Positions 1 to 61,388 of a DNA stretch of 64,000 nucleotides are shown here, one piece after another. Numbering within the stretch: position 1 is the stretch's first letter; every line of letters begins with the position of its first letter. The stretch is from Amphiscolops sp. MND2022. Taxonomy: Eukaryota. The stretch covers positions 12,402,001 through 12,466,000 of the forward strand of contig OZ076409.1 in the NCBI GenBank assembly GCA_964187785.1, written 5' to 3'. The notes beneath the pieces are model-generated. The model was not told the DNA's origin, ran no database searches, and was given only the letters and a program-made list of their open reading frames with translations. A program made the translations under genes and the position numbers.

Positions 1-3000
1 GAGAGAACTTATCCCCTATGGAAGTATACTGACGTAAACCATTTTGAGAGTTAAAGACATTTGAAAAGTTAAAATGCTGGAAAAAATCAAAAAATTTTCG
101 AACCGAGAGAACTTATCCTCTATGTAAGTATACTGAAGTAAGTCGTCATTTTGAGAGTTCAAGACAAAGGAGAAAATAAAACGCTTGACAATCAACAAAT
201 TTTCAAACCGACAGATTTTTTTCCATATAGAAGTACACTAAAGTAAGCCATTTTGAGAGTTAAAAACAAATAAAAACTAAAATGCTGGACATAATCAACT
301 ACTTTTCAAACCGACAGACTTTATTCCCTATGGAAGTACACTAATGTAAGCCATTTTGAGAGTTAAAGACAATTGAAAAGTTAAAATGCTGGAAATATTC
401 AACAATTTTTAGAATTGACAGACCTTATCACCTATGGAAGTACACTAAAAAGAGTCATTTTGACAGTTCAAAACAAATAAAAAACCAAAATGCTGGACAT
501 AATCAACGATTTTTCAAACCGACAGGGCTTATCACCTTTGGAAGTGCACTAAAGTGAGTCAATTTGAGAGTTGAAGACAAATGAAAAAAACAAAAATGCT
601 GGACATAATCAACAATTTTTCAAACCGACAGGGCTTATCACCTATGGAAGTACACTAAAGTAAGCCATTTTGAGAGTTAAAGACAATTGAAAAGTTAAAA
701 TGCTGGAAACAATCAACAATTTTTAGAAATGACAGAACTTATCACCCATGGAAGTACACTAAAGTGAGTCATTTTGAGAAATCAAGACAAATGAAAAACC
801 AAAAAGCTGGACATAATCAACAATTTTTCAAACTGAGAGATCTTATCAACTATGGAAGTATACTGAAGGAAGCCATTTTAAGAGTTGATGACATTTGAAA
901 AGTTAAAATGCTGAAAAAAATCAAAAAAATTTCAAACCGAGAGATCTTATCTCCTATATAAATATACTGAAGTAAGCCATTTTGAGAGGTCAAGACAAAT
1001 GAAAACCTAAAATGCTTGACATATTCAACAATTTTTCAAACCGACAGAATTTATTCCATATAGAAGTACACTAAAGTGAGTCATTTTGAGAGTTGAAGAC
1101 AAATAAAAAACCAAAATGCTGGACATAATCAACAATTTTTCAAACCGAGAGAACTTATCCCCTATGGAAGTATACTGAAGTAACCCATTTTGAGAGTTAA
1201 AGACATTTGAAAAGTTAAAATGCTGGAAAAAATCAAAAATTTTCGAACCGAGAGAACATATCCTCTATGTAAGTATACTGAATTAAGTCATTTTGAGAGT
1301 TCAAGACAAAGGAAAACATAAAACGCATGACAATCAACAATTTTTCAAACCGACAGATTTTTTTCCCTATAGAAGTACACTAAAGTAAGCCATTTTGAGA
1401 GTTAAAAACAAATAAAAACTAAAATACTGGACATAATCAACTACTCTTCAAACCGACAGAATTTATTCCCTATTGAAGTACACTAAAGTAAGCCATTTTG
1501 AGAGTTGAAGACAATTGAAAAGTTAGAATGCTGGAAATATTCAACAATTTTTAGAAACGACAGAACTTATCACCTATGGAAGTACACTAAAAAGAGTCAT
1601 TTTGACAGTTCAAGACAAATAAAAAACCAAAATGCTGGACATAATCAACAATTTTTCAAACCGACAGGGCTTATCACATATGGAAGTATACTAAAGTGAG
1701 TCATTTTGAGAGGTAAAGACAAATTAAAAACCAAAAAGCTGGACATAATCAACAATTTTTCAAACCGAGAGAACTTATCCCCAATGGAAGTACACTGAAG
1801 TAAGCCATTTTGAGAGTTAAAGACATTTGAAAAATCAAAATGCTGGAAAAATTCAAAAATTTTTCGAACCGAGAGAACTTATCCTCTATGTAAGTATACT
1901 GAATTAAGTCATTTTGAGAGTTCAAGACAAAGGAAAATATAAAACGCTTGACAATCAACAATTTTTCAAACCGACAGATTTTATTCCATATAGAAGTACA
2001 CTAAAGTAAACCATTTTGAGAGTTAAAAACAAATAAAAACTAAAATGCTGGACATAATCAACTACTTTTCAAACCGACAGAATTTATTCCCTATGGAAGT
2101 ACACCAATGTAAGCCATTTTGAGAGTTAAAGACAATTGAAAAGTTAAAATGCTGGAAATATTCAACAATTTTTAGAATTGACAGACCTTATCACCTATGG
2201 AAGTACACTAAAAAGAGTCATTTTGACAGTTCAAGACAAATAAAAAACCAAAATGCTGGACATAATCAACAATTTTTCAAACCGAGAGAACTTATCCCCT
2301 ATGGAAGTATACTGAAGTAACCCATTTTGAGAGTTAAAAACAAATGAAAACTAAAATGCTGGACATAATCAACTACTCTTCAAACCGACAGAATTTATTC
2401 CCTATTGAAGTACACTAAAGTAAGCCATTTTGAGAGTTAAAGACAATTGAAAAGTTAGAATGCTGGAAATATTCAACAATTTTTAGAAACGACAGAACTT
2501 ATCACCTATGGAAGTACACTAAAAAGAGTCATTTTGACAGTTCAAGACAAATAAAAAACCAAAATGCTGGACATAATCAACAATTTTTCAAACCGACAGG
2601 GCTTATCACCTATGGAAGTATACTAAGGTGAGTCATTTTGAGAGGTAAAGACAAATTAAAAACTAAAAAGCTGGACATAATCAACAATTTTTCAAACCGA
2701 GAGAACTTATCCCCAATGGGAGTATACTGAAGTAAGCCATTTTGAGAGTTAAAGACATTTGAAAAATCAAAATGCTGGAAAAATTCAAAATTTTTTCGAA
2801 CCGAGAGAACTTATCCCCTATGTAAGTATACTGAAGTAAGCCATTTTGAGAGTTCAAGACATTTGAAAAGTTAAAATGCTGGAAAAAATCAAAAATTTTC
2901 GAACCGAGAGAACTTATCCTCTATGTAAGTATACTGACGTAAACCATTTTGAGAGTTAAAGACATTTGAAAAGTTAAAATGCTGGAAAAAATCAAAAATT

Positions 3001-3639
3001 TTCGAACCGAGAGAACTTATCCTCTATGTAAGTATACTGAAGTAAGTCATTTTGAGAGTTCAAGACAAAGGAAAAAATAAAACGCTTGACAATCAACAAT
3101 TTTTCAAAACGACAGATTTTATTCCATATAGAAGTACACTGAAGTAAACCATTTTGAGAGTTAAAAACAAATAAAAACTAAAATGCTGGACATAATCAAC
3201 TACTTTTCAAACCGACAGAATTTATTCCCTATGGAAGTACACCAATGTAAGCCATTTTGAGAGTTAAAGACAATTGAAAAGTTAAAATGCTGGAAATATT
3301 CAACAATTTTTAGAATTGACAGACCTTATCACCTATGGAAGTACACTAAAAAGAGTCATTTTGACAGTTCAAGACAAATAAAAAACCAAAATGCTGGACA
3401 TAATCAACAATTTTTCAAACCGACAGGGCTTATCACCTATGGAAGTACACTAAAATGAGTCATTTTGAGAGGTAAAGACAAGTGAAAAACTAAAATTCTG
3501 GACATAATCAACTTTTTTTCAAACCGACAGAACATATTCCCTATGGTAGTACACTAAAGTAAGCCATTTTGAGAGTTGAAGACAATTGAAAAGTTAAAAT
3601 GCTGGAAATAATCAACAATTTTTAGAAACGACAGAACTT

Positions 3640-6560
3640 ATCACCTATGGAAGTACACTAAAGTGAGTCATTTTGAGAGTTGAAGACAAATAAAAAACCA
3701 AAATGCTGGACATAATCAACAATTTTTCAAGCCGACAGAGCTAATCACCTATGGAAGTACACTAAACTGAGTCAATTTGAGAGTTAAAGACAAATGAAAA
3801 AAACAAAAATGCTGGACATAATCAACAATTTTTCAAACCGACAGGGCTTATCACCTATGGAAGTACACTAAAGTAAGTCATTTTGAGAGGTAAAGACAAA
3901 TTAAAAACCAAAAAGCTGGACATAATCAACAATTTTTTAAACCGAGAGAACTTATCCCCAATGGAAGTATACTGAAGTAAGCCATTTTGAGAGTTAAAGA
4001 CTTTTGAAAAATCAAAATGCTGGAAAAAATTGAAAATTTTTCCAATCGAGAGAACTTATACCCTATGTAAGTATAGTGAAGTAAGTCATTTTGAGAGTTC
4101 AAGACAAAAGAAAACCTAAAGTGCTTGACAATCAACAATTTTTTAAACCGATAGAATTTATTCTATATAGAAGTACACTAAAGTAGGCCATTTTGAGATT
4201 TAAAAACAAATAAAAACTAAAATGCTGGACATAATCAACTACTTTTCAAACCGACAGACTTTATTCCCTATGGAAGTACACTAATATAAGCCATTTTGAG
4301 AGTTAAAGACAATTGAAAAGTTAAATTGCTGGAAATATTCAACAATTTTTAGAATTGACAGACCTTATCACCTATGGAAGTACACTAAAGTGAGTCATTT
4401 TGAGAGTTGAAGACAAATAAAAAACCAAAATGCTGGACATAATCAACAATTTTTCAAGCCGACAGAGCTAATCACCTATGGAAGTACACTAAACTGAGTC
4501 AATTTGAGAGTTAAAGACAAATGAAAAAAACAAAAATGCTGGACATAATCAACAATTTTTCAAACCGACAGGGCTTATCACCTATGGAAGTACACTAAAG
4601 TAAGTCATTTTGAGAGGTAAAGACAAATTAAAAACCAAAAAGCTGGACATAATCAACAATTTTTTAAACCGAGAGAACTTATCCCCAATGGAAGTATACT
4701 GAAGTAAGCCATTTTGAGAGTTAAAGACTTTTGAAAAATCAAAATGCTGGAAAAAATTGAAAATTTTTCCAATCGAGAGAACTTATACCCTATGTAAGTA
4801 TAGTGAAGTAAGTCATTTTGAGAGTTCAAGACAAAAGAAAACCTAAAGTGCTTGACAATCAACAATTTTTTAAACCGATAGAATTTATTCTATATAGAAG
4901 TACACTAAAGTAGGCCATTTTGAGATTTAAAAACAAATAAAAACTAAAATGCTGGACATAATCAACTACTTTTCAAACCGACAGACTTTATTCCCTATGG
5001 AAGTACACTAATATAAGCCATTTTGAGAGTTAAAGACAATTGAAAAGTTAAATTGCTGGAAATATTCAACAACTTTTAGAATTGACAGACCTTATCACCT
5101 ATGGAAGTACACTAAAGTGAGTCATTTTGAGAGTTGAAGACAAATAAAAAACCAAAATGCTGGACATAATCAACAATTTTTCAAGCCGACAGAGCTAATC
5201 ACCTATGGAAGTACACTAAACTGAGTCAATTTGAGAGTTAAAGACAAATGAAAAAAACAAAAATGCTGGACATAATCAACAATTTTTCAAACCGACAGGG
5301 CTTATCACCTATGGAAGTACACTAAAGTAAGTCATTTTGAGAGGTAAAGACAAATTAAAAACCAAAAAGCTGGACATAATCAACAATTTTTTAAACCGAG
5401 AGAACTTATCCCCAATGGAAGTATACTGAAGTAAGCCATTTTGAGAGTTAAAGACATTTGAAAAATCAAAATGCTGGAAAAAATTGAAAATTTTTCCAAT
5501 CGAGAGAACTTATCCCCTATGTAAGTATAGTGAAGTAAGTCATTTTGAGAGTTCAAGACAAAAGAAAACCTAAAGTGCTTGACAATCAACAATTTTTTAA
5601 ACCGATAGAATTTATTCTATATAGAAGTACACCAAAGTAGGCCATTTTGAGATTTAAAAACAAATAAAAACTAAAATTCTGGACATAATCAACTTTTTTT
5701 CAAACCGACAGAACATATTCCCTATGGTAGTACACTAAAGTAAGCCATTTTGAGAGTTGAAGACAATTGAAAAGTTAAAATGCTGGAAATAATCAACAAT
5801 TTTTAGAAACGACAGAACTTATCACCTATGGAAGTACACTAAAGTGAGTCATTTTGAGAGTTGAAGACAAATAAAAAACCAAAATGCTGGACATAATCAA
5901 CAATTTTTCAAGCCGACAGAGCTAATCACCTATGGAAGTACACTAAACTGAGTCAATTTGAGAGTTAAAGACAAATGAAAAAAACAAAAATGCTGGACAT
6001 AATCAACAATTTTTCAAACCGACAGGGCTTATCACCTATGGAAGTACACTAAAGTGAGTCATTTTGAGAGGTAAAGACAAATTAAAAACCAAAAAGCTGG
6101 ACATAATCAACAATTTTTCAAACCGAGAGAACTTATCCCCAATGGAAGTATACTGAAGTAAGCCATTTTGAGAGTTAAAGACATTTGAAAAATCAAAATG
6201 CTGGAAAAAATCAAAATTTTTCCAATCGAGAGAACTTATCCCTATGTAAGTATAGTGAAGTAAGTCATTTTGAGAGTTCAAGACAAAAGAAAACCTAAAG
6301 TGCTTGACAATCAACAATTTTTTAAACCGATAGAATTTATTCTATATAGAAGTACACTAAAGTAGGCCATTTTGAGATTTAAAAACAAATAAAAACTAAA
6401 ATGCTGGACATAATCAACTACTTTTCAAACCGACAGACTTTATTCCCTATGGAAGTACACTAATATAAGCCATTTTGAGAGTTAAAGACAATTGAAAAGT
6501 TAAATTGCTGGAAATATTCAACAATTTTTAGAATTGACAGACCTTATCACCTATGGAAGT
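3640..6560. repeat. 7-mer higher-order repeat (727 bp, ~4 copies) within the satellite
   Basis: Marker GCCGACAGAGCTAATCACCT at 3731, 4458, 5185 and 5912 (spacing 727). Near-identical spurious ORFs at 3926, 4653 and 5380 have the same offset. Confidence 0.93.
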
Positions 6561-9500
6561 ACACTAAAAAGAGTCATTTTGACAGTTCAAAACAAATAAA
6601 TAACCAAAATGCTGGACATAATCAACGATTTTTCAAACCGACAGGGCTTATCACCTATGGAAGTACACTAAAGTGAGTCATTTTGAGAGGTAAAGACAAA
6701 TTAAAAACCAAAAAGCTGGACAAAATCAACAATTTTTCAAACCGAGAGAACTTATCCCCAATGGAAGTATACTGAAGTAAGCCATTTTGAGAGTTAAAGA
6801 CATTTGAAAAATCAAAATGCTGGAAAAAATCAAAATTTTTTCAAACCGAGAGAACTTATCCCCTATGTAAGTATACTGAAGCAAGCCATTTTGAGAGTTC
6901 AAGACAAATAAAAAACCAAAATCCTTGACATAATCAACAATTTTTCAAACCGAGAGAACTTATCCCCTATGGAAGTATACTGACGTAAACCATTTGAGAG
7001 TTAAAGACATTTGAAAAGTTAAAATGCTGGAAAAAATCACAAATTTTTCGAACCGAGAGAACTTATCCTCTATGTAAGTATACTGAAGTAAGTCGTCATT
7101 TTGAGAGTTCAAGACAAAGGAGAAAATAAAACGCTTGAAAATCAACAATTTTTCAAACCGACAGATTTTATTCCATATAGAAGTACACTAAAGTAAGCCA
7201 TTTTGAGAGTTAAAAACAAATAAAAACTAAAATGCTGGACATAATCAACTACTTTTCAAACCGACAGACTTTATTCCCTATGGAAGTACACTAATGTAAG
7301 CCATTTTGAGAGTTAAAGACAATTGAAAGGTTAAAATGCTGGAAATATTCAACAATTTTTAGAATTGACAGACCTTATCACCTATGGAAGTACACTAAAA
7401 AGAGTCATTTTGACAGTTCAAAACAAATAAAAAACCAAAATGCTGGAAATAATCAACGATTTTTCAAACCGACAGGGCTTATCACCTATGGAAGTACACT
7501 AAAGTGAGTCATTTTGAGAGGTAAAGACAAGTAAAAAACTAAAATTCTGGACATAATCAACTGTTTTTCAAACCGACAGAACATATTCCCTATGGAAGTA
7601 CACTAAAGTAAGCCATTTTGAGAGTTGAAGACAATTGAAAAGTTAAAATGCTGGAAATAATCAACAATTTTTAGAAACGACAGAACTTATCACCTATGGA
7701 AGTACACTAAAGTGAGTCATTTTAAGAGTTGAAGACAAATGGAAAACCAAAATGCTGGACATAATCAACAATTTTTCAAGCCGACAGAGCTTATCACCTA
7801 TGGAAGTACACTAAAGTGAATCATTTTGAGAGTTAAAGACAAATGAAAAAAACAAAAATGCTGGACATAATCAACAATTTTTCAAGCCGACAGAGCTTAT
7901 CACCTATGGAAGTATACTGAAGTAAGCCACTTTGAGAGTTTGAGACATTTGAAAAATTAAAATGCTGGAAAAAATCAAAATTTTTTCAAACCGAGAGAAC
8001 TTATCCCCTTTGTAAGTATACTGAAGTAAGCCATTTTGAGAGTTCAAGACAAATAAAAAACCGAAATCCTTGACATAATCAACAATTTTTCAAACCGAGA
8101 GAACTTATCCCCTATGGAAGTATACTGAAGTAAACCATTTTGAGAGTTAAAGACATTTGAAAAGTTAAAATGCTGGAAAAAATCAAAATTTTTTTGAACC
8201 GAGAGAACTTATCCTCTATGTAAGTATTCTGAAGTAAGTCATTTTGAGAGTTCAAGACAAAGGAAAACCTAAAATACTTGACAATAAACAATTTTTCAAA
8301 CCAATTGAATTTATCCCATTTAGAAGTACACTAAAGTAAGCCATTTTGAGAGTTAAAAACAAAAAAACTAAAATTCTGGACATAATCAACTATTTTTCAA
8401 ACCGACAGAACATATTCCCTATGGAAGTACACTAAAGTAAGCCATTTTGAGAGTTGAAGACAATTGAAAAGTTAAAATGCTGGAAAAAATCACAAATTTT
8501 TCGAACCGAGAGAACTTATCTTCTATGTAAGTATACTGAAGTAAGTCGTCATTTTGAGAGTTCAAGACAAAGGAGAAAATAAAACGCTTGACAATCAACA
8601 ATTTTTCAAACCGACAGATTTTATTCCATATAGAAGTACACTAAAGTAAGCCATTTTGAGAGTTAAAAACAAATAAAAACTAAAATGCTGGACATAATCA
8701 ACTACTTTTTAAACCGAGAGAATTTATCCCCTATGTAAGTGTACTGAAGTAAGCCATTTTGAGAGTTAAAGACAATTGAAAAGTTAAAATGCTGGAAATA
8801 TTCAACAATTTTTTAGAATTGACAGACCTTATCACCTATGGAAGTACACTAAAAAGAGTCATTTTGACAGTTCAAAACAAATAAAAAACCAAAATGCTGG
8901 ACATAATCAACGATTTTTCAAACCGACAGGGCTTATCACCTATGGAAGTACACTAAAGTGAGTCATTTTGAGAGGTAAAGACAAGTAAAAAACTAAAATT
9001 CTGGACATAATCAACTGTTTTTCAAACCGACAGAACATATTCCCTATGGAAGTACACTAAAGTAAGCCATTTTGAGAGTTGAAGACAATTGAAAAGTTAA
9101 AATGCTGGAAATAATCAACAATTTTTAGAAACGACAGAACTTATCACCTATGGAAGTACACTAAAGTGAGTCATTTTAAGAGTTGAAGACAAATGGAAAA
9201 CCAAAATGCTGGACATAATCAACAATTTTTCAAGCCGACAGAGCTTATCACCTATGGAAGTACACTAAAGTGAGTCATTTTGAGAGTTAAAGACAAATGA
9301 AAAAAACAAAAATGCTGGACATAATCAACAATTTTTCAAGCCGACAGAGCTTATCACCTATGGAAGTATACTGAAGTAAGCCACTTTGAGAGTTTGAGAC
9401 ATTTGAAAAATTAAAATGCTGGAAAAAATCAAAATTTTTTCAAACCGAGAGAACTTATCCCCTTTGTAAGTATACTGAAGTAAGCCATTTTGAGAGTTCA

Positions 9501-12500
9501 AGACAAATAAAAAACCAAAATCCTTGACATAATCAACAATTTTTCAAACCGAGAGAACTTATCCCCTATGGAAGTATACTGAAGTAAACCATTTTGAGAG
9601 TTAAAGACATTTGAAAAGTTAAAATGCTGGAAAAAATCAAAATTTTTTTGAACCGAGAGAACTTATCCTCTATGTAAGTATTCTGAAGTAAGTCATTTTG
9701 AGAGTTCAAGACAAAGGAAAACCTAAAATACTTGACAATAAACAATTTTTCAAACCAATTGAATTTATCCCATTTAGAAGTACACTAAAGTAAGCCATTT
9801 TGAGAGTTAAAAACAAAAAAACTAAAATTCTGGACATAATCAACTATTTTTCAAACCGACAGAACATATTCCCTATGGAAGTACACTAAAGTAAGCCATT
9901 TTGAGAGTTGAAGACAATTGAAAAGTTAAAATGCTGGAAAGAATCAACAATTTTTAGAAACGACAGAACTTGTCACCTATGGAAGTACACTAAAGTGAGT
10001 CATTTTGAGAGTTAAAGACAAATAAAAAACCAAAATGCTGGACATAATCAACAATTTTCAAAGCCGACAGAGCTCATCACCTATGGAAGTACACTAAAGT
10101 GAGTCATTTTGAGAGTTAAAGACAATTAAAAAACCAAAATGCTGGAATTAATCAACAATTTTTCAAACCGACAGAACTTATCCCCTATGGAAGTATACTG
10201 AAGTAAGCCATTTTGAGAGTTAAAGACATTTGAAGAGTTAAAATGCTGGAAAAAATCAAATTTTTTTCAAACCGAGAGAACTTATCCCCTATGTTAGTAT
10301 ACTGAAGTAAGCCATTTTGAGAGTTCAAGACAAAAGAAAACCTAAAATGCTTGACAATCAACAGTTTTTCAAACCGACAGAATTTATTCTATATAGAAGT
10401 ACACTAAAGTAAGCCATTTTGAGAATTAAAACCAAATAAAAAACTAAAATGCTGGACATAATCAACAATTTTTCAAATCGACAGAACTTATCCCCCATGG
10501 AAGTATACTAAAGTAAGCCATTTTGAGAGTTAAAGACATTTGAAAAAGTAAATTGCTGGACCTAATCAACATTTTTTCAAACCGACAGAACTTATCCCCT
10601 ATGGAAGTATACTGAAGTAAGCCCTTTTGAGAGTTTGAGACAAATAAAAAACCAAAATGCTGTACCTAATCAACAATTTTTCAAACCGAGAGAACTTATC
10701 CCCTATGGAAGTATACTGAAGTAAGCCATTTTGAGAGTTTGAGACATTTGAAAAGTTAAAATGCTGGAAAAAATCAAAAAAATTTCAAACCGAGAGAACC
10801 TTTTTTCTATATAAATATACTGAAGTAAGCCATTTTGAGAGTTCAAGACCCAAAAAGCTTAACATAATCAACAATTTTTCAAACCGACAGAGTTTATTCC
10901 ATATAGAGGTACACTAAAGTGAGTCATTTTGAGAGTTAGAGACAAATAAAAAACCAAAATGCTGGACATAATCAACAATTTCTCAAACCGAGACAACTTA
11001 TCCCCTATGGAAGTATACTGAAGTAAGCCATGTTGAGAGTTAAAGACATTTGAAAAGTTAAAATGCTGGAAAAAATCAAAAATTTTTCGAACCGAGAGAA
11101 CTTATCCTCTATGTAAGTATACTGAAGTAAGTCGTCATTTTGAGAGTTCAAGACAAAGGAGAAAATAAAACGCTTGACAATCAACAATTTTTCAAACCGA
11201 CAGATTTTATTCCATATAGAAGTACACTAAAGTAAGCCATTTTGAGAGTTAAAAACAAATAAAAACTAAAATGCTGGACATAATCAACTACTTTTCAAAC
11301 CGACAGACTTTATTCCCTATGGAAGTACACTAATGTAAGCCATTTTGAGAGTTAAAGACAATTGAAAAGTTAAAATGCTGGAAATATTCAACAATTTTTA
11401 GAATTGACAGACCTTATCACCTATGGAAGTACACTAAAAAGAGTCATTTTGACAGTTCAAAACAAATAAAAAACCAAAATGCTGGACATAATCAACGATT
11501 TTTCAAACCGACAGGGCTTATCACCTATGGAAGTACACCAAAGTGAGTCATTTTGAGAGGTAAAGACAAATTAAAAACTAAAAAGCTGGACATAATCAAC
11601 AATTTTTCAAACCGAGAGAACTTATCCCCAATGGGAGTATACTGAAGTAAGCCATTTTGAGAGTTCAAGACAAAAGAAAACCTAAAATGCTTGACAATCA
11701 ACAGTTTTTCAAACCGACAGAATTTATTCTATATAGAAGTACACTAAAGTAAGCCATTTTGAGAATTAAAACCAAATAAAAAACTAAAATGCTGGACATA
11801 ATCAACAATTTTTCAAATCGACAGAACTTATCCCCCATGGAAGTATACTAAAGTAAGCCATTTTGAGAGTTAAAGACATTTGAAAAAGTAAATTGCTGGA
11901 CCTAATCAACATTTTTTCAAACCGACAGAACTTATCCCCTATGGAAGTATACTGAAGTAAGCCATTTTTAGAGTTTGAGACAAATAAAAAACCAAAATGC
12001 TGTACCTAATCAACAATTTTTCAAACCGAGAGAACTTATCCCCTATGGAAGTATACTGAAGTAAGCCATTTTGAGAGTTTGAGACATTTGAAAAGTTAAA
12101 ATGCTGGAAAAAATCAAAAAAATTTCAAACCGAGAGAACCTTTTTCCTATATAAATATACTGAAGTAAGCCATTTTGAGAGTTCAAGACCCAAAAAGCTT
12201 AACATAATCAACAATTTTTCAAACCGACAGAGTTTATTCCATATAGAGGTACACTAAAGTGAGTCATTTTGAGAGTTAGAGACAAATAAAAAACCAAAAT
12301 GCTGGACATAATCAACAATTTCTCAAACCGAGAGAACTTATCCCCTATGGAAGTATACTGAAGTAAGCCATGTTGAGAGTTAAAGACATTTGAAAAGTTA
12401 AAATGCTGGAAAAAATCAAAAATTTTTCGAACCGAGAGAACTTATCCTCTATGTAAGTATACTGAAGTAAGTCGTCATTTTGAGAGTTCAAGACAAAGGA

Positions 12501-30500: not shown

Positions 30501-32239
30501 ATAAGGAAGTACACTAAAGTGAGTCATTTTGAGAGTTGAAGAAAAATAAAAAACCAAAATGCTGGACATTATCAAAAATTTTTCAAACCGACAGAACTTA
30601 TCCCCTATGTAAGTATACTGAAGTAAGCCATTTTGAGAGTTCGAGACAATTGAAAACCTATAGTGCTTGACAAGCAACAATTTTTCAAACCGAAAGAACT
30701 TATTCCATATAGAAGTACAATAAAGTAAGCCATTTTGAGAGTTAAAAACAAATGAAAACTAAAATGCTGGACATAATCAACTATTTTTCAAACCGAGAGA
30801 ACTTATCCACTATGGAAGTACACTAAAGTAAGCCAATTTGAGAGTTAAAGACACTTGAAAAGTTAAAATGCTGGAAATATTCAACAATTAGTAGAAACGA
30901 CAGAACTTATCACATAAGGAAAAACACTAAAGTGAGTCATTTTGAGAGTTGAAGAAAAATAAAAAACCAAAATGCTGGACATTAACAAAAATTTTTCGAA
31001 CCGACAGAACTTATCCACTATGGAAGTATACTGAAGTGAGCCATTCTGAGTTAAAAACATTTGAAAAGGTAAAATGCAGGAAATAATCAACAATTTTTCA
31101 AACCGAAAGAACTCATCGCCTATGGAAGTACACAAAAGTAAGCCATTTTGAGAGTTAACGACAAATAAAAACCTAAAATGCTTGTCATAATCAACAATTT
31201 TTCAAACCGAGGAAACTTATCCCCTGTGGAAGTACACTAATGTAAGCCATTTTTAGAGTTAAAGACAAATAAAAACCTAAAATGCTTGACAATCAACAAT
31301 TTTTTAAACAGACTGAACTTATTCTATATAGAAGTACACTAAAGTAAGCCATTTTGAGAGTTAAAGACAAATAAAAAGTTAAAATGCTGGACTTAATCAA
31401 CAATTTTTCAAATCGACAGAACTTATCCTCTATGGAAGTATACTGAAGTAAGCCATTTTGAGTTAAAGACATCTGAAAAGTTAAAATGCAGGAAATATTC
31501 AACAATTTTTCAAACCGAGAGAACTTATCCCCTATGGAAGTACACTAAAGTGAGCCATTTTGAGAGTTCAAGACAAATGAAAACTTAAAATGCTTGACAA
31601 TCAACACTTTTTCAAACCGACAGAATTTATTCCATATAGAAGTACAATAATGTAAGCCATTTTGAGAGTTAAAAACAAATAAAAACTTAAATGCTGGATA
31701 TAATCAACTATTTTTCAAAACGATAGAACTTTTTCCCTTTAGAAATACACTAAAGTAAGCCATTATGAGAACTAAAAACAATTGAAAAGTTAAACTGCTG
31801 GAAATAATCATCAATTTTTAGAAACGACAGAACTTATCACCTATGGAAGTACACTAAAGCGAGTCATTTTGAGGGTTAAAGACAAAACACCAAAATGCTG
31901 GACATAATCAACAGTTTTCGAAACCGACAAAGCTTATCACCTATGGAAGTACACTAAAAAGAGTCATTTTGAGAGTTAACGTCAAATAAAAAACCGAAAT
32001 GCTGGACATAATCAACAATTTTTCAAACCGAGAGATTTTATCCCCTATGGAAGTATACTGAAGTAAGCCATTTTGAGTTAAAGACATTTGAAAAGTTAAA
32101 ATGCCTGAAAAAATCAAAAAATTTTCAAACCGAGAGATCTTATCCCCTATGTAAGTATACTGAAGTAAGCCATTTTGAGAGTTCGAGACAAATGAAAACC
32201 TATAGTGCTTGACAAACAACAATTTTTCAAACCGACAGA

Positions 32240-35200
32240 ACTTATCCCCTTTGGAAGTATACTGAAGTAAGCCATTCTGAGTTGAAGACATTTGAAAAGT
32301 TAGTATGTAGGAAATAAACAACAATTTTTCAAACCAAGAGAACTTATTTCATATAGAAGTACACTAAAACAAGCCATTTTGAGAGTTAAAGACAAACAAA
32401 AAACTAAACTGATGGACATAATCAACAATTTTTTTAATCAACAGAACTTATCCCCTATGGAAGTATACTGAAGTAAGCCATTTTGAGTGTTAAAGACATT
32501 CGAAAAGTTAAATTGCTGGACATAATCAACAATTTTTCAAACCGAGAGAACTTATTCCTTATAGAAGTACACTAAAACAAGCCATTTTGAGAGTTAAAGA
32601 CAAACAAAAAACTAAACTGATGGACATAATCAACAATTTTTCAAACCGACAAAACTTATCCCCTATGGAAGTATACTGAAGTAAGCCATTTTGAGAGTTA
32701 AAGACATTCAAAAAGTTAAATTGCTGGACATTATCAACAATTTTTCAAACCGAGAGAACTTATTTCATATAGAAGTACACTAAAACAAGCCATTTTGAGA
32801 GTTAAAGACAAACAAAAAACTAAACTGATGGACATAATCAACAATTTTTTAAATCAACAGAACTTATCCCCTATGGAAGTATACTGAAGTAAGCCATTTT
32901 GAGTGTTAAAGACATTCGAAAAGTTAAATTGCTGGACATAATCAACAATTTTTCAAACCGAGAGAAATTATTCCACATAGAAGTACACTAAAGTAAGTCA
33001 TTTTGAGAGGTAAAGACATTTGAAAAAATAAAATGCTAGAAATATTCAACAATTTTTCAAACCAAGAGAATTTATGCCATATGGAAGTACACTAAAATAA
33101 GCCATTATGATAGTTAGAGAAGATAAAAACCTAAAATGCTGGACCTAATCAACAATTTTTCAAATTAACAGAACTTATCCTCTATGGAAGTACACTAAAG
33201 TAAGCCACTTTGAGAGTTAAAGACGAATAAAAAACTAAAATGCTGGACCTAATCAACATTTTTCCAAACCGGCAGAACTTATCCTCTATGGAAGTATACT
33301 GAAGTAAGCCATTTTGAGAGTTAAAGACTTTTGAAAAAAGAATGCTGGAAATATTCAACAATTTTTCAAACCGAGAGAAATTATCTCCTATGGAAGTACA
33401 CTAAAGTAAACCATTTTGAGAGTTAAAGACAAATGAAAACCTAAAATGCTGGACCTAATCAACAATTTTTCAAATCGACAGAACTTATTCTCTATGGAAG
33501 TACACTAAAGTAAGCCATTTTGAGAGTTAAAGACAGATAAAAAACTAAAATGCTGGACCTAATCAACATTTTTCCAAACCGGCAGAACTTATCCTCTATG
33601 GAAGTATACTGAAGTAAGCCATTTTTAGAGTTAGACTTAAATGCTGGACCTAATCAACAATTTTTCAAACCGACAGAACTTATCCCCTATGGAAGTATAC
33701 TGAAGTAAGCCATTTTGAGAGTTAAAGACATTGGAAAAGTTAAATTGCTGGACATAATCAACAATTTTTCAAACCGAGAGAACTTATTTCATAAAGAAGT
33801 ACACTAAAATAAGCCATTTTGAGAGTTAAAGACAAATAAAAAACTAAAATGATGGACATAATCAACTTTTTTTCAAACCGACAGATCTTATCCCCTATGG
33901 AAGTACACTAAAGTAAGCCATTTTGAGAGTTAAAGACACTTGGAAAGTTAAAATTCTGGAAACATTCAACAATTTTTAGAAACGACAGAACTTATCACCT
34001 TTGGAAGTATACTGAAGTAAGCCATTCTGAGTTGAAGACATTTGAAAAGTTAGTATGTAGGAAATAAACAACAATTTTTCAAACCAAGAGAACTTATTTC
34101 ATATAGAAGTACACTAAAACAAGCCATTTTGAGAGTTAAAGACAAACAAAAAACTAAACTGATGGACATAATCAACAATTTTTTTAATCAACAGAACTTA
34201 TCCCCTATGGAAGTATACTGAAGTAAGCCATTTTGAGTGTTAAAGACATTCGAAAAGTTAAATTGCTGGACATAATCAACAATTTTTCAAACCGAGAGAA
34301 CTTATTCCTTATAGAAGTACACTAAAACAAGCCATTTTGAGAGTTAAAGACAAACAAAAAACTAAACTGATGGACATAATCAACAATTTTTCAAACCGAC
34401 AAAACTTATCCCCTATGGAAGTATACTGAAGTAAGCCATTTTGAGAGTTAAAGACATTCAAAAAGTTAAATTGCTGGACATTATCAACAATTTTTCAAAC
34501 CGAGAGAACTTATTTCATATAGAAGTACACTAAAACAAGCCATTTTGAGAGTTAAAGACAAACAAAAAACTAAACTGATGGACATAATCAACAATTTTTT
34601 AAATCAACAGAACTTATCCCCTATGGAAGTATACTGAAGTAAGCCATTTTGAGTGTTAAAGACATTCGAAAAGTTAAATTGCTGGACATAATCAACAATT
34701 TTTCAAACCGAGAGAAATTATTCCACATAGAAGTACACTAAAGTAAGTCATTTTGAGAGGTAAAGACATTTGAAAAAATAAAATGCTAGAAATATTCAAC
34801 AATTTTTCAAACCAAGAGAATTTATGCCATATGGAAGTACACTAAAATAAGCCATTATGATAGTTAGAGAAGATAAAAACCTAAAATGCTGGACCTAATC
34901 AACAATTTTTCAAATTAACAGAACTTATCCTCTATGGAAGTACACTAAAGTAAGCCACTTTGAGAGTTAAAGACGAATAAAAAACTAAAATGCTGGACCT
35001 AATCAACATTTTTCCAAACCGGCAGAACTTATCCTCTATGGAAGTATACTGAAGTAAGCCATTTTGAGAGTTAAAGACTTTTGAAAAAAGAATGCTGGAA
35101 ATATTCAACAATTTTTCAAACCGAGAGAAATTATCTCCTATGGAAGTACACTAAAGTAAACCATTTTGAGAGTTAAAGACAAATGAAAACCTAAAATGCT

Positions 35201-35745
35201 GGACCTAATCAACAATTTTTCAAATCGACAGAACTTATTCTCTATGGAAGTACACTAAAGTAAGCCATTTTGAGAGTTAAAGACAGATAAAAAACTAAAA
35301 TGCTGGACCTAATCAACATTTTTCCAAACCGGCAGAACTTATCCTCTATGGAAGTATACTGAAGTAAGCCATTTTTAGAGTTAGACTTAAATGCTGGACC
35401 TAATCAACAATTTTTCAAACCGACAGAACTTATCCCCTATGGAAGTATACTGAAGTAAGCCATTTTGAGAGTTAAAGACATTGGAAAAGTTAAATTGCTG
35501 GACATAATCAACAATTTTTCAAACCGAGAGAACTTATTTCATAAAGAAGTACACTAAAATAAGCCATTTTGAGAGTTAAAGACAAATAAAAAACTAAAAT
35601 GATGGACATAATCAACTTTTTTTCAAACCGACAGATCTTATCCCCTATGGAAGTACACTAAAGTAAGCCATTTTGAGAGTTAAAGACACTTGGAAAGTTA
35701 AAATTCTGGAAACATTCAACAATTTTTAGAAACGACAGAACTTAT
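32240..35745. repeat. Near-exact 1750-bp tandem duplication (17-mer HOR x2) within the satellite
   Basis: GTTGAAGACATTTGAAAAGTTAGTATGTAG at 32281 and 34031. The downstream private variants recur in the same order. Confidence 0.9.
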
Positions 35746-38700
35746 CACCTATTGAAGTACACTAAAGTGAATCTTTTCGAGAGTTAGAGAAAAATAAAAA
35801 CCAAAATTCTGGACATAATCAACATTTTTTCAAACCGACAGAACTTATCCCCTTTGGAAGTATACTGAAGTAAGCCATTCTGAGTTGAAGACATTTGAAA
35901 AGTTAACATGCAGGAAATATACAACAATTTTTCAAACCGAGAGAACTTATTCCCTATAGAAGTACACTAAAGTAAGCCATTTTGAGAGTTAAAGACAAAT
36001 AAAAAACTAAAATGCTGGACCTAATCAACAATTTTTCAAACCGACAGAACTTATTCCCTATGGAAGTATACTGAAGTTTGCCATTTTGAGAGTTAAAGAC
36101 AATTGAAAAGTTAAAATGCTGGTAATATTCAACAATTTTCTGAAACGAAAGAGCTTATCACCTATGGAAGTACACAAAAGTGAGTCATTTTGAAAGTTAA
36201 AGACAAAAAACCAAAATGCTGGACATAATCAACATTTTTCCAAACCGGCAGAACTTATCCTCTATGGAAGTATACTGAAGTAAGCCATTTTGAGAGTTAG
36301 ACTTAAATGCTGGACCTAATCAACAATTTTTCAAACCGACAAAACTTATCCCCTATGGAAGTATACTGAAGTAAGCCATTTTGAGAGTTAAAGACATTCG
36401 AAAAGTTAAATTGCTGCACATATTCAACAATTTTCCCAACCGAGAGAACTTATTTCATATAGAAGTACACTAAAATAAGCCATTTTGAGAGTTAAAGACA
36501 AATAAAAAACTAAACTGATGGACATAATCAACAATTTTTCAAACCAACAGAACTTATCCCCTATGGAAGTATACTGAAGTAAGCCATTTTGAGAGTTAAA
36601 GACATTCGAAAAGTTAAATTGCTGGACATAATCAACCATTTTTCAAACCGAGAGAACTTGTTCCATATAGAAGTACACTAAAGTAAGCCATTTTGAGAGG
36701 TAAAGATAATTGAAAAAATAAAATGCTGGAAAGATTCAACAATTTTTCAAACCAAGAGTATTTATCCCATATGGAAGTACACTAAAGTAAGCCATTTTGA
36801 GAGTTAAAGAAAATAAAAACCTAAAATGCTGGACCTAATCAACAATTTTTCAAATTAACAGAACTTATCCTCTATGGAAGTACACTAAAGTAAGCCACTT
36901 TGAGAGTTAAAGACGAATAAAAAACTAAAATGCTGGACCTAATCAACATTTTTCCAAACCGGCAGAACTTATGCTCTATGGAAGTATACTGAAGTAAGCC
37001 ATTTTGAGAGTTAAAGACTTTTGAAAAAATAAAATGCTGGAAATATTCAACAATTTTTCAAACCGAGAGAAATTATCTCCTATGGAAGTACACTAAAGTA
37101 AGCCATTTTGAGAGTTAAAGACAAATGAAAACCTAAAATGCTGGACCTAATCAACAATTTTTCAAATTAACAGAACTTATCCTCTATGGAAGTACACTAA
37201 AGTAAGCCATTTTGAGAGTTAAAGACAGATAAAAAACTAAAATGCTGGACCTAATCAACATTTTTCCAAACCGGCAGAACTTATCCTCTATGGAAGTATA
37301 CTGAAGTAAGCCATTTTGAGAGTTAGACTTAAATGCTGGACCTAATCAACAATTTTTCAAACCGACAGAACTTATCCCCTATGGAAGTATACTGAATTAA
37401 GCCATTTTGAGAGTTAAAGACATTGGAAAAGTTAAATTGCCGGACATAATCAACAATTTTTCAAACCGAGAGAACTTATTTTATATAGAAGTACACTAAA
37501 ATAGGCCATTTTGAGAGTTAAAGACAAATAAAAAACTAAAATGATGGACATAATCAACTATTTTTCAAACCGACAGATCTTATCCCCTATGCAAGTACAC
37601 TAAAGTAAGCCATTTTGAGAGTTAAAGACACTTGGAATGTTAAAATTCTGGTAAAATTCAACAATTTTCTGAAACGAAAGAGCTTATCACCTATTGAAGT
37701 ACACTAAAGTGAGTCGTTTCGAGAGTTAGAGAAAAATAAAAACCAAAATTCTGGACATAATCAACATTTTTTCAAACCGACAGAACTTATCCCCTTTGGA
37801 AGTATACTGAAGTAAGCCATTCTGAGTTGAAGACATTTGAAAAGTTAACATGCAGGAAATATACAACAATTTTTCAAACCGAGAGAACTTATTCCCTATA
37901 GAAGTACACTAAAGTAAGCCATTTTGAGAGTTAAAGACAAATAAAAAACTAAAATGCTGGACCTAATCAACAATTTTTCAAACCGACAGAACTTATTCCC
38001 TATGGAAGTATACTGAAGTTTGCCATTTTGAGAGTTAAAGACAATTGAAAAGTTAAAATGCTGGTAATATTCAACAATTTTCTGAAACGAAAGAGCTTAT
38101 CACCTATGGAAGTACACTAAAGTGAGTCATTTTGAAAGTTAAAGACAAAAAACCAAAATGCTGGACATAATCAACATTTTTCCAAACCGGCAGAACTTAT
38201 CCTCTATGGAAGTATACTGAAGTAAGCCATTTTGAGAGTTAGACTTAAATGCTGGACCTAATCAACATTTTTTCAAACCGACAAAACTTATCCCCTATGG
38301 AAGTATACTGAAGTAAGCCATTTTGAGAGTTAAAGACATTCGAAAGTTAAATTGCTGGACATAATCAACAATTTTCCAAACCGAGAGAACTTATTTCATA
38401 TAGAAGTACACTAAAATAGGCCATTTTGAGAGTTAAAGACAAATAAAAAACTAAACTGATGGACATAGTCAACAATTTTTGAAACCAACAGAACTTATCC
38501 CCTATGGAAGTATACTGAAGTAAGCCATTTTGAGAGTTAAAGACATTCGAAAAATTAAATTGCTGGACATAATCAACAATTTTTCAAACCGAGAGAACTT
38601 ATTTCATATAGAAGTACACTAAAATAAGCCATTTTGAGAGTTAAAGACAAATAAAAAACTAAAATGATGGACATAATCAACTATTTTTCAAACCGACAGA

Positions 38701-41700
38701 TCTTATCCCCTATGGAAGTACACTAAAGTAAGCCATTTTGAGAGTTAAAGACACTTGGAAAGTTAAAATTCTGGAAACATTCAACAATTTTTAGAAACGA
38801 CAGAACTTATCACCTATTGAAGTACACTAAAGTGAATCTTTTCGAGAGTTAGAGAAAAATAAAAACCAAAATTCTGGACATAATCAACATTTTTTCAAAC
38901 CGACAGAACTTATCCCCTTTGGAAGTATACTGAAGTAAGCCATTCTGAGTTGAAGACATTTGAAAAGTTAACATGCAGGAAATATACAACAATTTTTCAA
39001 ACCGAGAGAACTTATTCCCTATAGAAGTACACTAAAGTAAGCCATTTTGAGAGTTAAAGACAAATAAAAAACTAAAATGCTGGACCTAATCAACAATTTT
39101 TCAAACCGACAGAACTTATTCCCTATGGAAGTATACTGAAGTTTGCCATTTTGAGAGTTAAAGACAATTGAAAAGTTAAAATGCTGGTAAAAATCAACAA
39201 TTTTTTGAAACGAAAGAGCTTATCACCTATGGAAGTACACTAAAGTGAGTCATTTTGAAAGTTAAAGACAAAAAACCAAAATGCTGGACATAATCAACAT
39301 TTTTCCAAACCGGCAGAACTTATCCTCTATGGAAGTATACTGAAGTAAGCCATTTTGAGAGTTAGACTTAAATGCTGGACCTAATCAACATTTTTTCAAA
39401 CCGACAAAACTTATCCCCTATGGAAGTATACTGGAGTAAGCCATTTTGAGAGTTAAAGACATTCGAAAAGTTAAATTGCTGGACATAATCAACAATTTTC
39501 CAAACCGAGAGAACTTATTTCATATAGAAGTACACTAAAATAAGCCATTTTGAGAGTTAACGACAAATAAAAAACTAAACTGATGGACATAATCAACAAT
39601 TTTTCAAACCAACAGAACTTATCCCCTATGGAAGTATACTGAAGTAAGCCATTTTGAGAGTTAAAGACATTCGAAAAGTTAAATTGCTGGACATAATCAA
39701 CCATTTTTCAAACCGAGAGAACTTGTTCCATATAGAAGTACACTAAAGTCAGCCATTTTCAGAGGTGAAGAATTTTGAAAAAATAAAATGCTGGAAATAT
39801 TCAACAATTTTTCAAACCAAGAGTATTTACTCCATATGGAAGTACACTAAAGTAAGCCATTTTGAGAGTTAAAGAAAATAAAAACCTAAGATGCTGGACC
39901 TAATCAACAATTTTTCAAATTGACAGAACTTATCCTCTATGGAAGTACACTAAAGTAAGCCACTTTGAGAGTTAAAGACAGATAAAAAACTAAAATGCTG
40001 GACCTAATCAACATTTTTCCAAATCGGCAGAAGTTATCCTCTATGGAAGTATACTGAAGTAAGCCATTTTGAGAGTTAAAGACTTTTGAAAAAATAAAAT
40101 GCTGGAAATATTCAACAATTTTTCAAACCGAGAGAAATTATCTCCTATGGAAGTACACTAAAGTAAGCCATTTTGAGAGTTAAAGACAAATAAAAACCTG
40201 AAATGCTGGACCTAATCAACAATTTTTCAAATCGACAGAACTTATCCTCTATGGAAGTACACTAAAGTAAGCCATTTTGAGAGTTAAAGACAGATAAAAA
40301 ACTAAAATACTGGACCTAATCAACATTTTTCCAAACCGGCAGAACTTATCCTCTATGGAAGTATACTGAAGTAAGCCATTTTGAGAGTTAGACCTAAATG
40401 CTGGACCTAATAAACAATTTTTCAAACCGACAGAACTTATCCCCTATGGAAGTATACTGAAGTAAGTCATTTTGAGAGTTAAAGACATTGGAAAAGTTAA
40501 ATTGCTGGACATAATCAACAATTTTTCAAACCGAGAGAACTTATTTCATATAGAAGTACACTAAAATAAGCCATTTTGAGAGTTAAAGACAAATAAAAAA
40601 CTAAAATGATGGACATAATCAACTATTTTTCAAACCGACAGATCTTATCCCCTATGGAAGTACACTAAAGTAAGCCATTTTGAGAGTTAAAGACACTTGG
40701 AAAGTTAAAATTCTGGAAACATTCAACAATTTTTAGAAACGACAGAACTTATCCTCTATGGAAGTATACTGAAGTAAGCCATTTTGAGAGTTAGACTTAA
40801 ATGCTGGACCTAATCAACAATTTTTCAAACCGACAAAACTTATCCCCTATGGAAGTATACTGAAGTAAGCCATTTTGAGAGTTAAAGACATTCGAAAAGT
40901 TAAATTGCTGGACATAATAAACAATTTTCCAAACCGAGAGAACTTATTTCATATAGAAGTACACTAAAATAAGCCATTTTGAGAGTTAAAGACAAATAAA
41001 AAACTAAACTGATGGACATAATCAACAATTTTTCAAACCAACAGAACTTATCCCCTATGGAAGTATACTGAAGTAAGCCATTTTGAGAGTTAAAGACATT
41101 CGAAAAGTTAAATTGCTGGACATAATCAACCATTTTTCAAACCGAGAGAACTTGTTCCATATAGAAGTACACTAAAGTAAGCCATTTTGAGAGGTAAAGA
41201 TTTTTGAAAAATAAAATGCTGGAAATATTCAACAATTTTTCAAACCAAGAGTATTTATCCCATATGGAAGTACACTAATGTAAGCCATTTTGAGAGTTAA
41301 AGACGAATAAAAAACTAAAATGCTGGACCTAATCAACATTTTTCCAAACCGGCAGAACTTATCCTCTATGGAAGTATACTGAAGTAAGCCATTTTGAGAG
41401 TTAAAGACTTTTGAAAAAATAAAATGCTGGAAATATTCAACAATTTTTCAAACCGAGAGAAATTATCTCCTATGGAAGTACACTAAAGTAAGCCATTTTG
41501 AGAGTTAAAGACAAATGAAAACCTAAAATGCTGGACCTAATCAACAATTTTTTAAATCGACAGAACTTATCCTCTATGGAAGTACACTAAAGTAAGCCAT
41601 TTTGAGAGTTAAAGACAGATAAAAAACTAAAATGCTGGACCTAATCAACATTTTTCCAAACCGGCAGAACTTATCCTCTATGGAAGTATACTGAAGTAAG

Positions 41701-44700
41701 CCATTTTGAGAGTTAGACTTAAATGCTGGACCTAATCAACAATTTTTCAAACCGAGAGAACTTATTCCCTATAGAAGTACACTAAAGTAAGCCATTTTGA
41801 GAGTTAAAGACAAATAAAAAACTAAAATGCTGGACCTAATCAACAATTTTTCAAACCGACAGAACTTATTCCCTATGGAAGTATACTGAAGTTTGCCATT
41901 TTGAGAGTTAAAGACAATTGAAAAATTAAAATAATGGTAATAATCAACAATTTTCTGAAACGAAAGAGCTTATCACCTATGGAAGTACACTAAAGTGAGT
42001 CATTTTGAAAGTTAAAGACAAAAACCAAAATGCTGGACATAATCAACATTTTTCCAAACCGGCAGAACTTATCCTCTATGGAAGTATACTGAAGTAAGCC
42101 ATTTTGAGAGTTAGACTTAAATGCTGGACCTAATCAACGATTTTTCAAACCGACAAAACTTATCCCCCATGGAAGTATACTGAAGTAAGCCATTTTGAGA
42201 GTTAAAGACATTCGAAAAGTTAAATTGCTGGACATAATCAACAATTTTCCAAACCGAGAGAACTTATTTCATATAGAAGTACACTAAAATAGGCCATTTT
42301 GAGAGTTAAAGACAAATAAAAAACTAAACTGATGGACATAATCAACAATTTTTCAAACCAACAGAACTTATCCCCTATGTAAGTATACTGAAGTAAGCCA
42401 TTTTGAGAGTTAAAGACATTCGAAAAGTTTAATTGCTGGACATAATCAACCATTTTTCAAACCGAGAGAACTTGTTCCATATAGAAGTACACTAAAGTAA
42501 GCCATTTTGAGATGTAAAGATTTTTGAAAAAATAAAATGCTGGAAATATTAAACAATTTTTCAAACCAAGAGTATTTATCGCATATGGGAGTACACTAAA
42601 GTAAGCCATTTTGAGAGTTAAAGAAAATAAAAACCTAAATGCTGGACCTAATCAACAATTTTTCAAACCGACAGAACTTATCCCCCATGGAAGTATACTG
42701 AAGTAAGCCATTTTGAGAGTTAAAGACATTGGAAAAGTTAAATTGCTGGACATAATCAACAATTTTTCAAACCGAGAGAACTTATTTCATATAGAAGTAC
42801 TCTAAAATAAGCCATTTTGAGAGTTAAAGACAAATAAAAAACTAAAATGATGGACATAATCAACTATATTTCAAACCGACAGATCTTATCCCCTATGGAA
42901 GTACACTAAAGTAAGCCATTTTGAGAGTTAAAGACACTTGGAAAGTTAAAATTCTGGAAACATTCAACAATTTTTAGAAACGACAGAACTTATCACCTAT
43001 TGAAGTACACTAAATTGAGTCTTTTCGAGAGTTAGAGAAAAATAAAAACCAAAATTCTGGACATAATCAACATTTTTTCAAACCGACAGAACTTATCCCC
43101 TTTGGAAGTATACTGAAGTAAGCCATTCTGAGTTGAAGACATTTGAAAAGTTAACATGCAGGAAATATACAACACTTTTCCAAACCGAGAGAACTTATTC
43201 CCTATAGAAGTACACTAAAGTAAGCCATTTTGAGAGTTAAAGACAAATAAAAAACTAAAATGCTGGACCTAATCAACAATTTTTCAAACCGACAGAACTT
43301 ATCCCCTATGGAAGTATACTGAAGTAAGCCATTTTGAGAGTTAAAGACAATTGAAAAGTTAAAATGCTGGTAATAATCAACAATTTTCTGAAACGAAAGA
43401 GCTTATCACCTAATGAAGTACACTAAAGTGAGTCATTTTGAAAGTTAAAGACAAAAAACCAAAATGCTGGACATAATCAACATTTTTCCAAACCGGCAGA
43501 ACTTATCCTCTATGGAAGTATACTGAAGTAAGCCATTTTGAGAGTTAGACTTAAATGCTGGACCTAATCAACAATTTTTCAAACCGACAAAACTTATCCC
43601 CTATGGAAGTATACTGAAGTAAGCCATTTTGAGAGTTAAAGACATTCGAAAAGTTAAATTGCTGGACATAATCAACAATTTTCCAAACCGAGAGAACTTA
43701 TTTCACATAGAAGTACACTAAAATAAGCCATTTTGAGAGTTAAAGACAAATAAAAAACTAAACTGATGGACATAATCAACAATTTTTCAAACCAACAGAA
43801 CTTATCCCCTATGGAAGTATACTGAAGTAAGCCATTTTGAGAGTTAAAGACATTCGAAAAGTTAAATTGCTGGACATAATCAACCATTTTTCAAACCGAG
43901 AGAACTTGTTCCATATAGAAGTACACTAAAGTAAGCCATTTTGAGAGGTAAAGATTTTTGAAAAAATAAAATGCTGGAAATATTCAACAATTTTTCAAAC
44001 CAAGAGTATTTATCCCATATGGAAGTACACTAAAGTAAGCCATTTTGAGAGTTAAAGAAAATAAAAACCTAAGATGCTGGACCTAATCAACAATTTTTCA
44101 AATTGACAGAACTTATCCTCTATGGAAGTACACTAAAGTAAGCGACTTTGAGAGTTAAAGACAGATAAAAAACTAAAATGCTGGACCTAATCAACATTTT
44201 TCCAAATCGGCAGAAGTTATCCTCTATGGAAGTATACTGAAGTAAGCCATTTTGAGAGTTAAAGACTTTTGAAAAAATAAAATGCTGGAAATATTCAACA
44301 ATTTTTCAAACCGAGAGAAATTATCTCCTATGGAAGTACACTAAAGTAAGCCATTTTGAGAGTTAAAGACAAATAAAAACCCGAAATGCTGGACCTAATC
44401 AACAATTTTTCAAATCGACAGAACTTATCCTCTATGGAAGTACACTAAAGTAAGCCATTTTGAGAGTTAAAGACAGATAAAAACTAAAATGCTGGAACTA
44501 ATCAACATTTTTCCAAACCGGCAGAACTTATCCTCTATGGAAGTATACTGAAGTAAGCCATTTTGAGAGTTAAAGACATTTGAAAAGTTGAATTGCTGGA
44601 CATAATCAACAATTTTTCAAATCAACAGAACTTATCCCCTATGGAAGTATACTGAAGTAAGCCATTTTGAGAGTTAAAGACATTTGAAAAGTTAAATTGC

Positions 44701-45428
44701 TGGACCTAATCAACAATTTTTCAAACCGACAGAACTTATCCCCTATGGAAGTATACTGAAGTAAGCCATTTTGAGAGTTAAAGACGTTTGAAAAGATAGA
44801 TTGCTGGACCTAATCAACAATTTTTCAAACCGACAGAACTTATCTCCTATGGAAGTACACTAAAGTAAGCCATTTTGAGAGTTAAAGACAAAAAAAACCT
44901 AAAATGCTGGACCTAATCAACAATTTTTCAAATCAACAGAACTTATCCCCTATGGAAGTACACTAAAGTAAGCCATTTTGAGAGTTAAAGACAGACAAAA
45001 AACTAAAATGCTGGACCTAACTAACAATTTTCCAAACCGGCGGAACTTATCCTCCATGGAAGTATACTGAAGCCATTTTGAGAGTTAGACTTAAATGCTG
45101 GAACTAATCAACAATTTTTCAAACCGACAGAACTTATCCCCTATGGAAGTATACTGAAGTAAGCCATTTTGAGGAATAAAGACATTTGAAAAGTTAAATT
45201 GCTGGACAGAATCAACAATTTTTCAAACCAAGAGAACTTATTCCATTTAGAAGTACACTAAAACAAGCAATTTTGAGACTTTAAGGCAAATAAAAAACTA
45301 AAATGCTGGACATAATCAACAATTTTTCAAACCCAAAAAACTTATCCCCTATGGAACTTAACAATGGTAAAAGCCCGTTATTCAAAACAATTATCCAATC
45401 AGACGTAGAATGTTCACTACACTCTTTG

Positions 45429-48447: not shown

Positions 48448-48553
48448 TCTATAGACCGTTTCAAAAAGTTCGCGACCGAAACCCCAATACGACATGCAGC
48501 CCCATATTGTGACAAGTACCTAGTCTAGCGAACTTCTTGAAACGGTCTATAGA
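48448..48553. mobile_element. ~102-106-bp MITE-like foldback with 24-26-bp terminal inverted repeats (also at 51795-51896 and 54479-54580)
   Basis: TATAGACCGTTTCAAAAAGTTCGC ... GCGAACTT(C/T)TTGAAACGGTCTATA. The 24-bp match is perfect in the third copy. Confidence 0.75.
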
Positions 48554-59521: not shown

Positions 59522-59713
59522 CTGAAAAACATACCATTGATAGGTTTGCAAGAAAGAGCAACTTCACACTACACGATCATGAAAGGGAGAAAATTACCCA
59601 AAGGCGAAATTACCAAGATGAGCTTTGATACTTCATATTACTTTGGATTTGAAAAACTTCACAATTGTCATTTTTCCGTTTCACAAAATCAAATGATTCC
59701 AATGCCCATTTTG

Positions 59714-61349: not shown

Positions 61350-61388
61350 TATTACTAAATTTTTACATGTAATAAAATGATGCACTAC

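Follow-up and report, generated by a model that had tools for sequence, protein, structure and literature searches.

The first 45 kb of the window (the whole stretch of DNA that was analysed, 64,000 nucleotides) are non-coding satellite DNA, a head-to-tail array of 104-bp monomers whose shifting higher-order repeats (HORs) are best read as a record of turnover rather than a designed structure. We class the array with the heterogeneous-HOR satellites, like that of Arabidopsis, and not with the regimented alpha-satellite type. Its anatomy, register and block sizes, and the lack of a dominant period, can be read directly from the DNA. On balance, we favour a satellite that copies itself in blocks and sits in passive heterochromatin, this stretch being more probably not the kinetochore-bearing core. 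Passive heterochromatin is its likely role, a chromatin state that we infer.

TRF reports a single array in the window, at 4-45356 with period 104.

1..45356, + strand: 104-bp satellite array with a GC content of 31%; it has no end on the left within the window, and its right end is abrupt and lies inside a monomer.

Because the array leaves the window at its left end, the length of 45 kb is a lower bound. Wrap-around decomposition, a check proposed with an earlier sequence-only reading of this DNA, resolved 440 whole monomers and two end fragments in a register that is never lost. The modal length is 104 bp (264 of the 440 monomers), followed by 102 bp (76), 103 bp (51), 105 bp (11), 91 bp (11) and 106 bp (8); the rarer lengths are 100 bp (7), 101 bp (6), 94 bp (4), 99 bp (1) and 87 bp (1). 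Distinct monomers number 290, with a mean pairwise edit distance of 18.6 (~82% identity). That reading had described a satellite of more than 45 kb in one orientation, with no inversion or insertion noticed, and both points hold: no inverted segment and no minus-strand self-hit was found in the array at E<10 and word size 7, the largest insertion relative to the consensus is 2 bp, and no transposon insertion was seen over the 45 kb. The longest stop-free stretch in six frames is 135 codons. GC content is 31% in the array vs 36% in the flank, and CpG observed/expected is 0.41 vs 1.09. A methylation signature at CpG was sought among young C>T changes, which occur at 7 of 116 CpG sites vs a rate of 0.040 elsewhere, no clear excess.

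Positions 25 and 29 of the monomer occur in two tightly linked states (258 vs 173 of the 440 monomers, 9 mixed); one of these states forms an 8-bp palindrome, with no sign of function. We detected no sub-repeat inside the monomer (best 41 matches; null 95% = 44), no hairpin propensity (equally good folds in 13 of 200 shuffles), no dyad-symmetry signal (z -1.65, one dimer) and no conserved or protected protein-binding box (P=0.38 for the coldest 15-bp window). A 10.4-bp harmonic is present in WW dinucleotides at P=0.019, borderline as one of three tests, the others being AA/TT (P=0.12) and AA/TT/TA (P=0.11).

Shifting HOR periods had been read from the sequence earlier, and all 14 of the quoted values were recovered with a tolerance of +-3 bp, each at >=96% identity across at least 200 bp. 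Their order is far beyond chance: diagonal runs of at least four matching monomers number 87 (longest 27), vs a mean of 0.025 and a maximum of 1 in 200 shuffles of monomer order. A correction to that reading is that each period has only 1.4-4 copies: about 4 for 727 bp, about 3 for 928 bp, up to ~2.9 for 515 bp and up to ~2.4 for 413 bp. The periods of 1453/1454, 1340, 1244, 2885, 1959, 1750, 1942 and 1123 bp have ~2.0-2.2 copies each, and those of 2160 bp (~1.65 copies) and 4183 bp (~1.44 copies) are partial block copies, not tandem periods. The domains and the principal blocks are as follows.

1..32235, + strand: left domain, with five old monomer classes (clustering at 13-15 edits) recurring in the order A-B-C-D-E.
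3548..6465, + strand: 7-monomer (727 bp) block, the HOR unit with the most copies (about 4).
6987..9975, + strand: 14-monomer (1454 bp) duplication, ~2 copies.
10245..12961, + strand: 13-monomer (1340 bp) duplication, ~2 copies; the monomer at the junction, 11616, combines two classes in a mosaic.
13390..16058, + strand: 12-monomer (1244 bp) duplication whose copies show no difference over 1244 bp.
14786..20577, + strand: 28-monomer (2885 bp) duplication whose copies are 6 edits apart over 2780 bp.
20981..23771, + strand: 9-monomer (928 bp = 515 + 413) block, ~3 copies.
25310..29285, + strand: 19-monomer (1959 bp) duplication; a third copy, older and partial, lies 2160 bp upstream.
32236..45356, + strand: right domain, with its own variant set and alternating dimers.
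32210..35776, + strand: 17-monomer (1750 bp) duplication whose copies are 1 edit apart over 1750 bp.
34377..39748, + strand: a 19-monomer (1942 bp) duplication that overlaps one of 11 monomers (1123 bp).
38460..44493, + strand: 1.85-kb block that recurs 4183 bp downstream, the two copies differing by 32 edits over 1850 bp; no tandem period.

The A-B-C-D-E scaffold of the left domain measures 4-5 monomers (413/515 bp), and younger block duplications lie on top of it. Monomers of the right domain have a mean best match of 11-12 edits to the left domain vs ~1 within their own, and twelve of them share a common 13-bp deletion (eleven are 91 bp long and one is 87 bp). With block pairs defined as in a 325-genome centromere atlas (TRASH-style, at least 4 monomers at >=96% identity), 371 of the 440 monomers (84%) fall into 68 pairs with 43 different spacings, the largest being 119 monomers or 12.3 kb. 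An array-wide HOR period is absent by the re-implemented Fisher g test of the atlas (P=0.38, with power limited at 440 monomers); the lowest P among six sub-windows, 0.0014, is still above the atlas threshold of 0.001. Copies in the 11 pairs measured differ by graded amounts, from 0 to 32 edits. There is no age gradient: ages are patchy and without outward layering, with the youngest blocks found at 13-23 and 32-35 kb and older patches at 0-2, 29-32 and 43-45 kb.

How might such an array grow? We propose that it would expand and contract as blocks of whole monomers are copied in register in a homology-directed way, either through out-of-register repair against the sister or through unequal exchange, with point mutation between events. 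A single event would copy 1-28 adjacent monomers once and so create its own local period of 2-4 copies; overlapping successive events would produce nested, shifting HORs and a similarity that falls with distance. The repair pathway is suggested by analogy with Arabidopsis data. In mutation-accumulation lines of that plant, 35 insertions of 1-31 units with mosaic breakpoints are reported, 56 of 56 large indels were in register, and homology-directed repair is given as the cause (10.1101/2025.06.02.657473); a review ties such satellite turnover to break-induced replication (PMC12321929). In the present array, a greedy collapse that removes the youngest duplications first undoes 17 tandem events at <=3 edits, taking 440 monomers to 254 (186 removed), and 40 events at <=8 edits, taking 440 to 166 (274 removed), with blocks of 1-28 monomers. 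Mosaic junction monomers are visible, for example at 11616.

Would such events suffice? A neutral simulation used random in-register duplications, deletions and point mutation, without indels or conversion and with 12 replicates per setting. In its tuned round, two of six settings (mean block 10 and 14 monomers) bracketed all nine observed statistics; the other four missed at least one, and the observed HOR fraction lay near the upper end. A first round of 7 settings x 3 with more mutation was over-mutated and failed to match. Within the limits of this model, the simulation shows the sufficiency of duplication, deletion and mutation, and is not a proof that they acted. Sub-monomer non-allelic gene conversion is weakly indicated: both haplotypes were found in other classes for 5 of 51 difference clusters (null 1.4%), the clusters being non-independent, and 102 of 146 young changes at variable columns lead to an allele common elsewhere, a pattern that polarity errors could also yield.

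At 45356 the array ends abruptly, and a decayed outer layer of monomers is absent. The last 16 monomers differ from the consensus at 7-14 positions, one deletion-bearing unit at 26, against an array mean of 12.1; the last nine match their neighbours slightly more poorly (nearest neighbour at 2-10 edits). Duplication was active up to ~10 monomers from the edge, and no satellite remnant was found in the flank beyond it (best E 0.25). The sequence-only reading had placed this edge next to genes, which is correct: two intact genes are the nearest to the array end, at 12 and 14 kb.

57531..58091, - strand: VKORC1-type gene, intronless, 186 aa (Pfam VKOR, E 4e-27); the nearest gene, 12.2 kb from the array end.
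59382..62595, - strand: SPCS2 (signal peptidase subunit) gene (Pfam SPC25).

Does this edge belong to a centromere? It is possible, at odds that we put well below even, that the array in the window is the outermost part of the centromeric satellite of this species, with Arabidopsis-like heterogeneous HORs continuing far to the left and a monomer of ten helical turns that phases CENP-A nucleosomes. Such an edge would fit an array of at least 45 kb in one orientation that runs past the window, rich in HORs and with duplication sizes like those of CEN178. The monomer also belongs to the 100-200 bp class, which holds 128 of 263 candidate centromeric families (10.64898/2026.09.17.752431), and it shows weak WW phasing at 10.4 bp; many centromeric satellites are reported to have such phasing (PMC12321929). 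Every one of these features is, however, non-specific; the WW signal is borderline after three tests and that of AA/TT not significant, and the dyad-symmetry signal is lacking. Centromeric arrays are described as heavily invaded by transposons (10.64898/2026.09.17.752431), whereas here the 45 kb carry no insertion, the 18.6-kb flank has no recognisable transposon-coding zone, and none of 85 flank frames matched a transposon protein domain. The gene-poor, transposon-rich boundary typical of centromeres is not seen in this flank, which has two genes as well as non-coding dispersed repeats. A bolder version, which we regard as unlikely, takes the array for the live centromeric satellite of an animal lineage, one whose 104-bp monomer of ten helical turns phases CENP-A nucleosomes and whose Arabidopsis-type turnover continues as far as an abrupt edge free of transposons, with intact housekeeping genes 12 kb away and almost without a pericentromeric buffer.

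The step from HORs to a centromere, taken in the sequence-only reading, proved weak. HORs are simply block duplications by the TRASH definition (PMC10199239); they were detected in 76 of the 171 species for which Sanger data existed (PMC4053949), are prevalent across the 263 candidate families (10.64898/2026.09.17.752431), are also carried by a subtelomeric satellite (PMC5737874), and arise in our neutral simulation. Because they are common and also found outside centromeres, they are not diagnostic of one, and the features of this window do not establish centromere identity. The proposed mechanism is nevertheless compatible with a centromere and does not exclude one, the same mutational spectrum having been measured in real centromeres.

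We give little credence to the idea that reads tiled out of register during assembly created the youngest duplications, or much of the HOR order, as artefacts. Two duplications are indeed identical or nearly so, with 0 edits in 1244 bp and 1 in 1750 bp, but divergence between most copies is graded and reaches 32 edits; young variants comprise 323 substitutions vs 19 indels, unlike noisy-read error; and the duplications nest consistently, with rare deletions inherited together (94-bp x4, 91/87-bp x12). On the strength of this graded divergence, the excess of substitutions and the consistently inherited deletions, we argue that the HOR order is real. Hardly credible at all is a regimented HOR centromere of the primate type, formed by layered expansion and ageing layer by layer toward the edge: diverged monomers (~82%) within near-identical blocks, linked states at positions 25/29 that recall A/B monomer types, and a distinct right domain would suit it, but no period exceeds ~4 copies, the Fisher g test finds none either overall or in a sub-window, young and old blocks are interspersed, edge monomers equal the rest in closeness to the consensus with no remnant beyond, and a CENP-B box is absent (with <=1 mismatch allowed, the motif has 0 matches in the array and 1 in the flank, 3.0 expected).

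The block-copying satellite that we favour most resembles CEN178 of Arabidopsis thaliana. Whole-monomer block duplications are in register in both, of 1-28 monomers here vs 1-31 in CEN178 (10.1101/2025.06.02.657473), and both have mosaic junction monomers, heterogeneous spacing without a long-range period, and local blocks of similarity (10.64898/2026.09.17.752431). They differ in monomer length (178 bp vs 104 bp here) and in host, apparently an animal here; our array is free of transposon insertions over 45 kb, with genes 12-14 kb from its edge, and is described here from those 45 kb of DNA sequence, whereas CEN178 arrays are known at megabase scale and by CENH3 occupancy. With primate alpha satellite it shares diverged monomers inside near-identical multi-monomer blocks, two main monomer states and AT-richness (PMC12321929), but it has no single many-copy HOR, no age layering, no divergent monomeric flank and no CENP-B box. 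Of the two likenesses drawn in the sequence-only reading, that to the organisation of CEN178 stands, and that to the domain layering of alpha satellite is not supported: the dominant period, the young-centre/old-edge gradient, the decayed edge layer and the CENP-B box are all absent here. MarmoSAT, a subtelomeric satellite, likewise combines a nucleosome-scale monomer and HORs without a demonstrated centromere function; it has a simple dimeric HOR, in contrast to the many nested periods seen here in sequence, and has been localised by FISH (PMC5737874).

Is the monomer new? A literature search found no prior description of it, and the main text of the centromere atlas mentions 104 bp for the plant Luzula only (10.64898/2026.09.17.752431). 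Exact-pattern scans gave 0 matches in metagenome contigs (two patterns), prokaryote genomes and viral contigs, where an animal satellite is not expected. Satellites are given a half-life of about 12 My, and lineage-specific sequences are to be expected (10.64898/2026.09.17.752431). We tentatively regard this one as undescribed-looking yet ordinary. Its significance as it stands is small, surveys having already revealed such satellites and heterogeneous HORs to be widespread; it offers a clean teaching case of neutral local duplication that yields shifting HOR periods, with block sizes as measured in a plant. If centromeric, it would mark the centromere in a lineage with poor annotation, and its close neighbourhood of centromere and genes, unusually tight, would allow study of how the spreading of CENP-A and heterochromatin is arrested.

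Animal VKORC1 genes mostly contain introns. The VKOR protein of the window is identical to one on record (P0007), and its close relatives are ENA proteins at 99, 77, 55 and 51% identity, which are likewise whole single-frame calls and so suggest intron loss in VKORC1 across a fast-evolving clade; VKOR proteins of scorpion, annelid, limpet, rotifer, snake, insects and choanoflagellate are all about 39-50% identical. In a tree of 69 rows, from which proteins outside 140-260 aa or beyond P0070 were excluded, the window protein falls into a 9-row clade with ENA proteins (support 100/98, the bootstrap not being fully converged). SPCS2 has exons at 62595-62402, 61672-61389 and 59521-59382 (- strand) with GT-AG introns and an open frame of 205 aa; an alternative donor 3 bp further on gives 206 aa. 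Searches for relatives of SPCS2 returned no matches. These surroundings mark the host as a eukaryote and, most likely, an animal; the word invertebrate in the sequence-only reading is plausible.

The flank between the array and these genes holds a further tandem repeat.

47181..56491, strand not assigned: 3.35-kb non-coding tandem unit, ~2.8 copies, 94-95% identical, outside the satellite.

This unit has no Pfam, Rfam or tRNA match, and no relation was found between the 104-bp monomer and the flank repeats. A 49-bp direct repeat inside the unit, at 47766-47814 and 50482-50530, sits at junctions; recombination between its copies would explain the shorter third unit. Short dispersed repeats also lie beyond the array edge. 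One element has two copies, at 45535-45939 and 63606-63982, the copy adjoining the array edge carrying an internal 84-bp sub-repeat (2.7 copies, 96%). Motifs resembling tRNA boxes, possibly SINE heads, were noticed by eye at 46480-46560 (+) and 60480-60540 (-); neither ARAGORN nor Rfam returned anything there, and Rfam had no match in 44000-64000. A/T-rich dispersed repeats form an inverted pair (56791-56958 / 60203-60452, 71-79% identical) that flanks VKORC1 and the last SPCS2 exon. One flank repeat may resemble acoel worm DNA.
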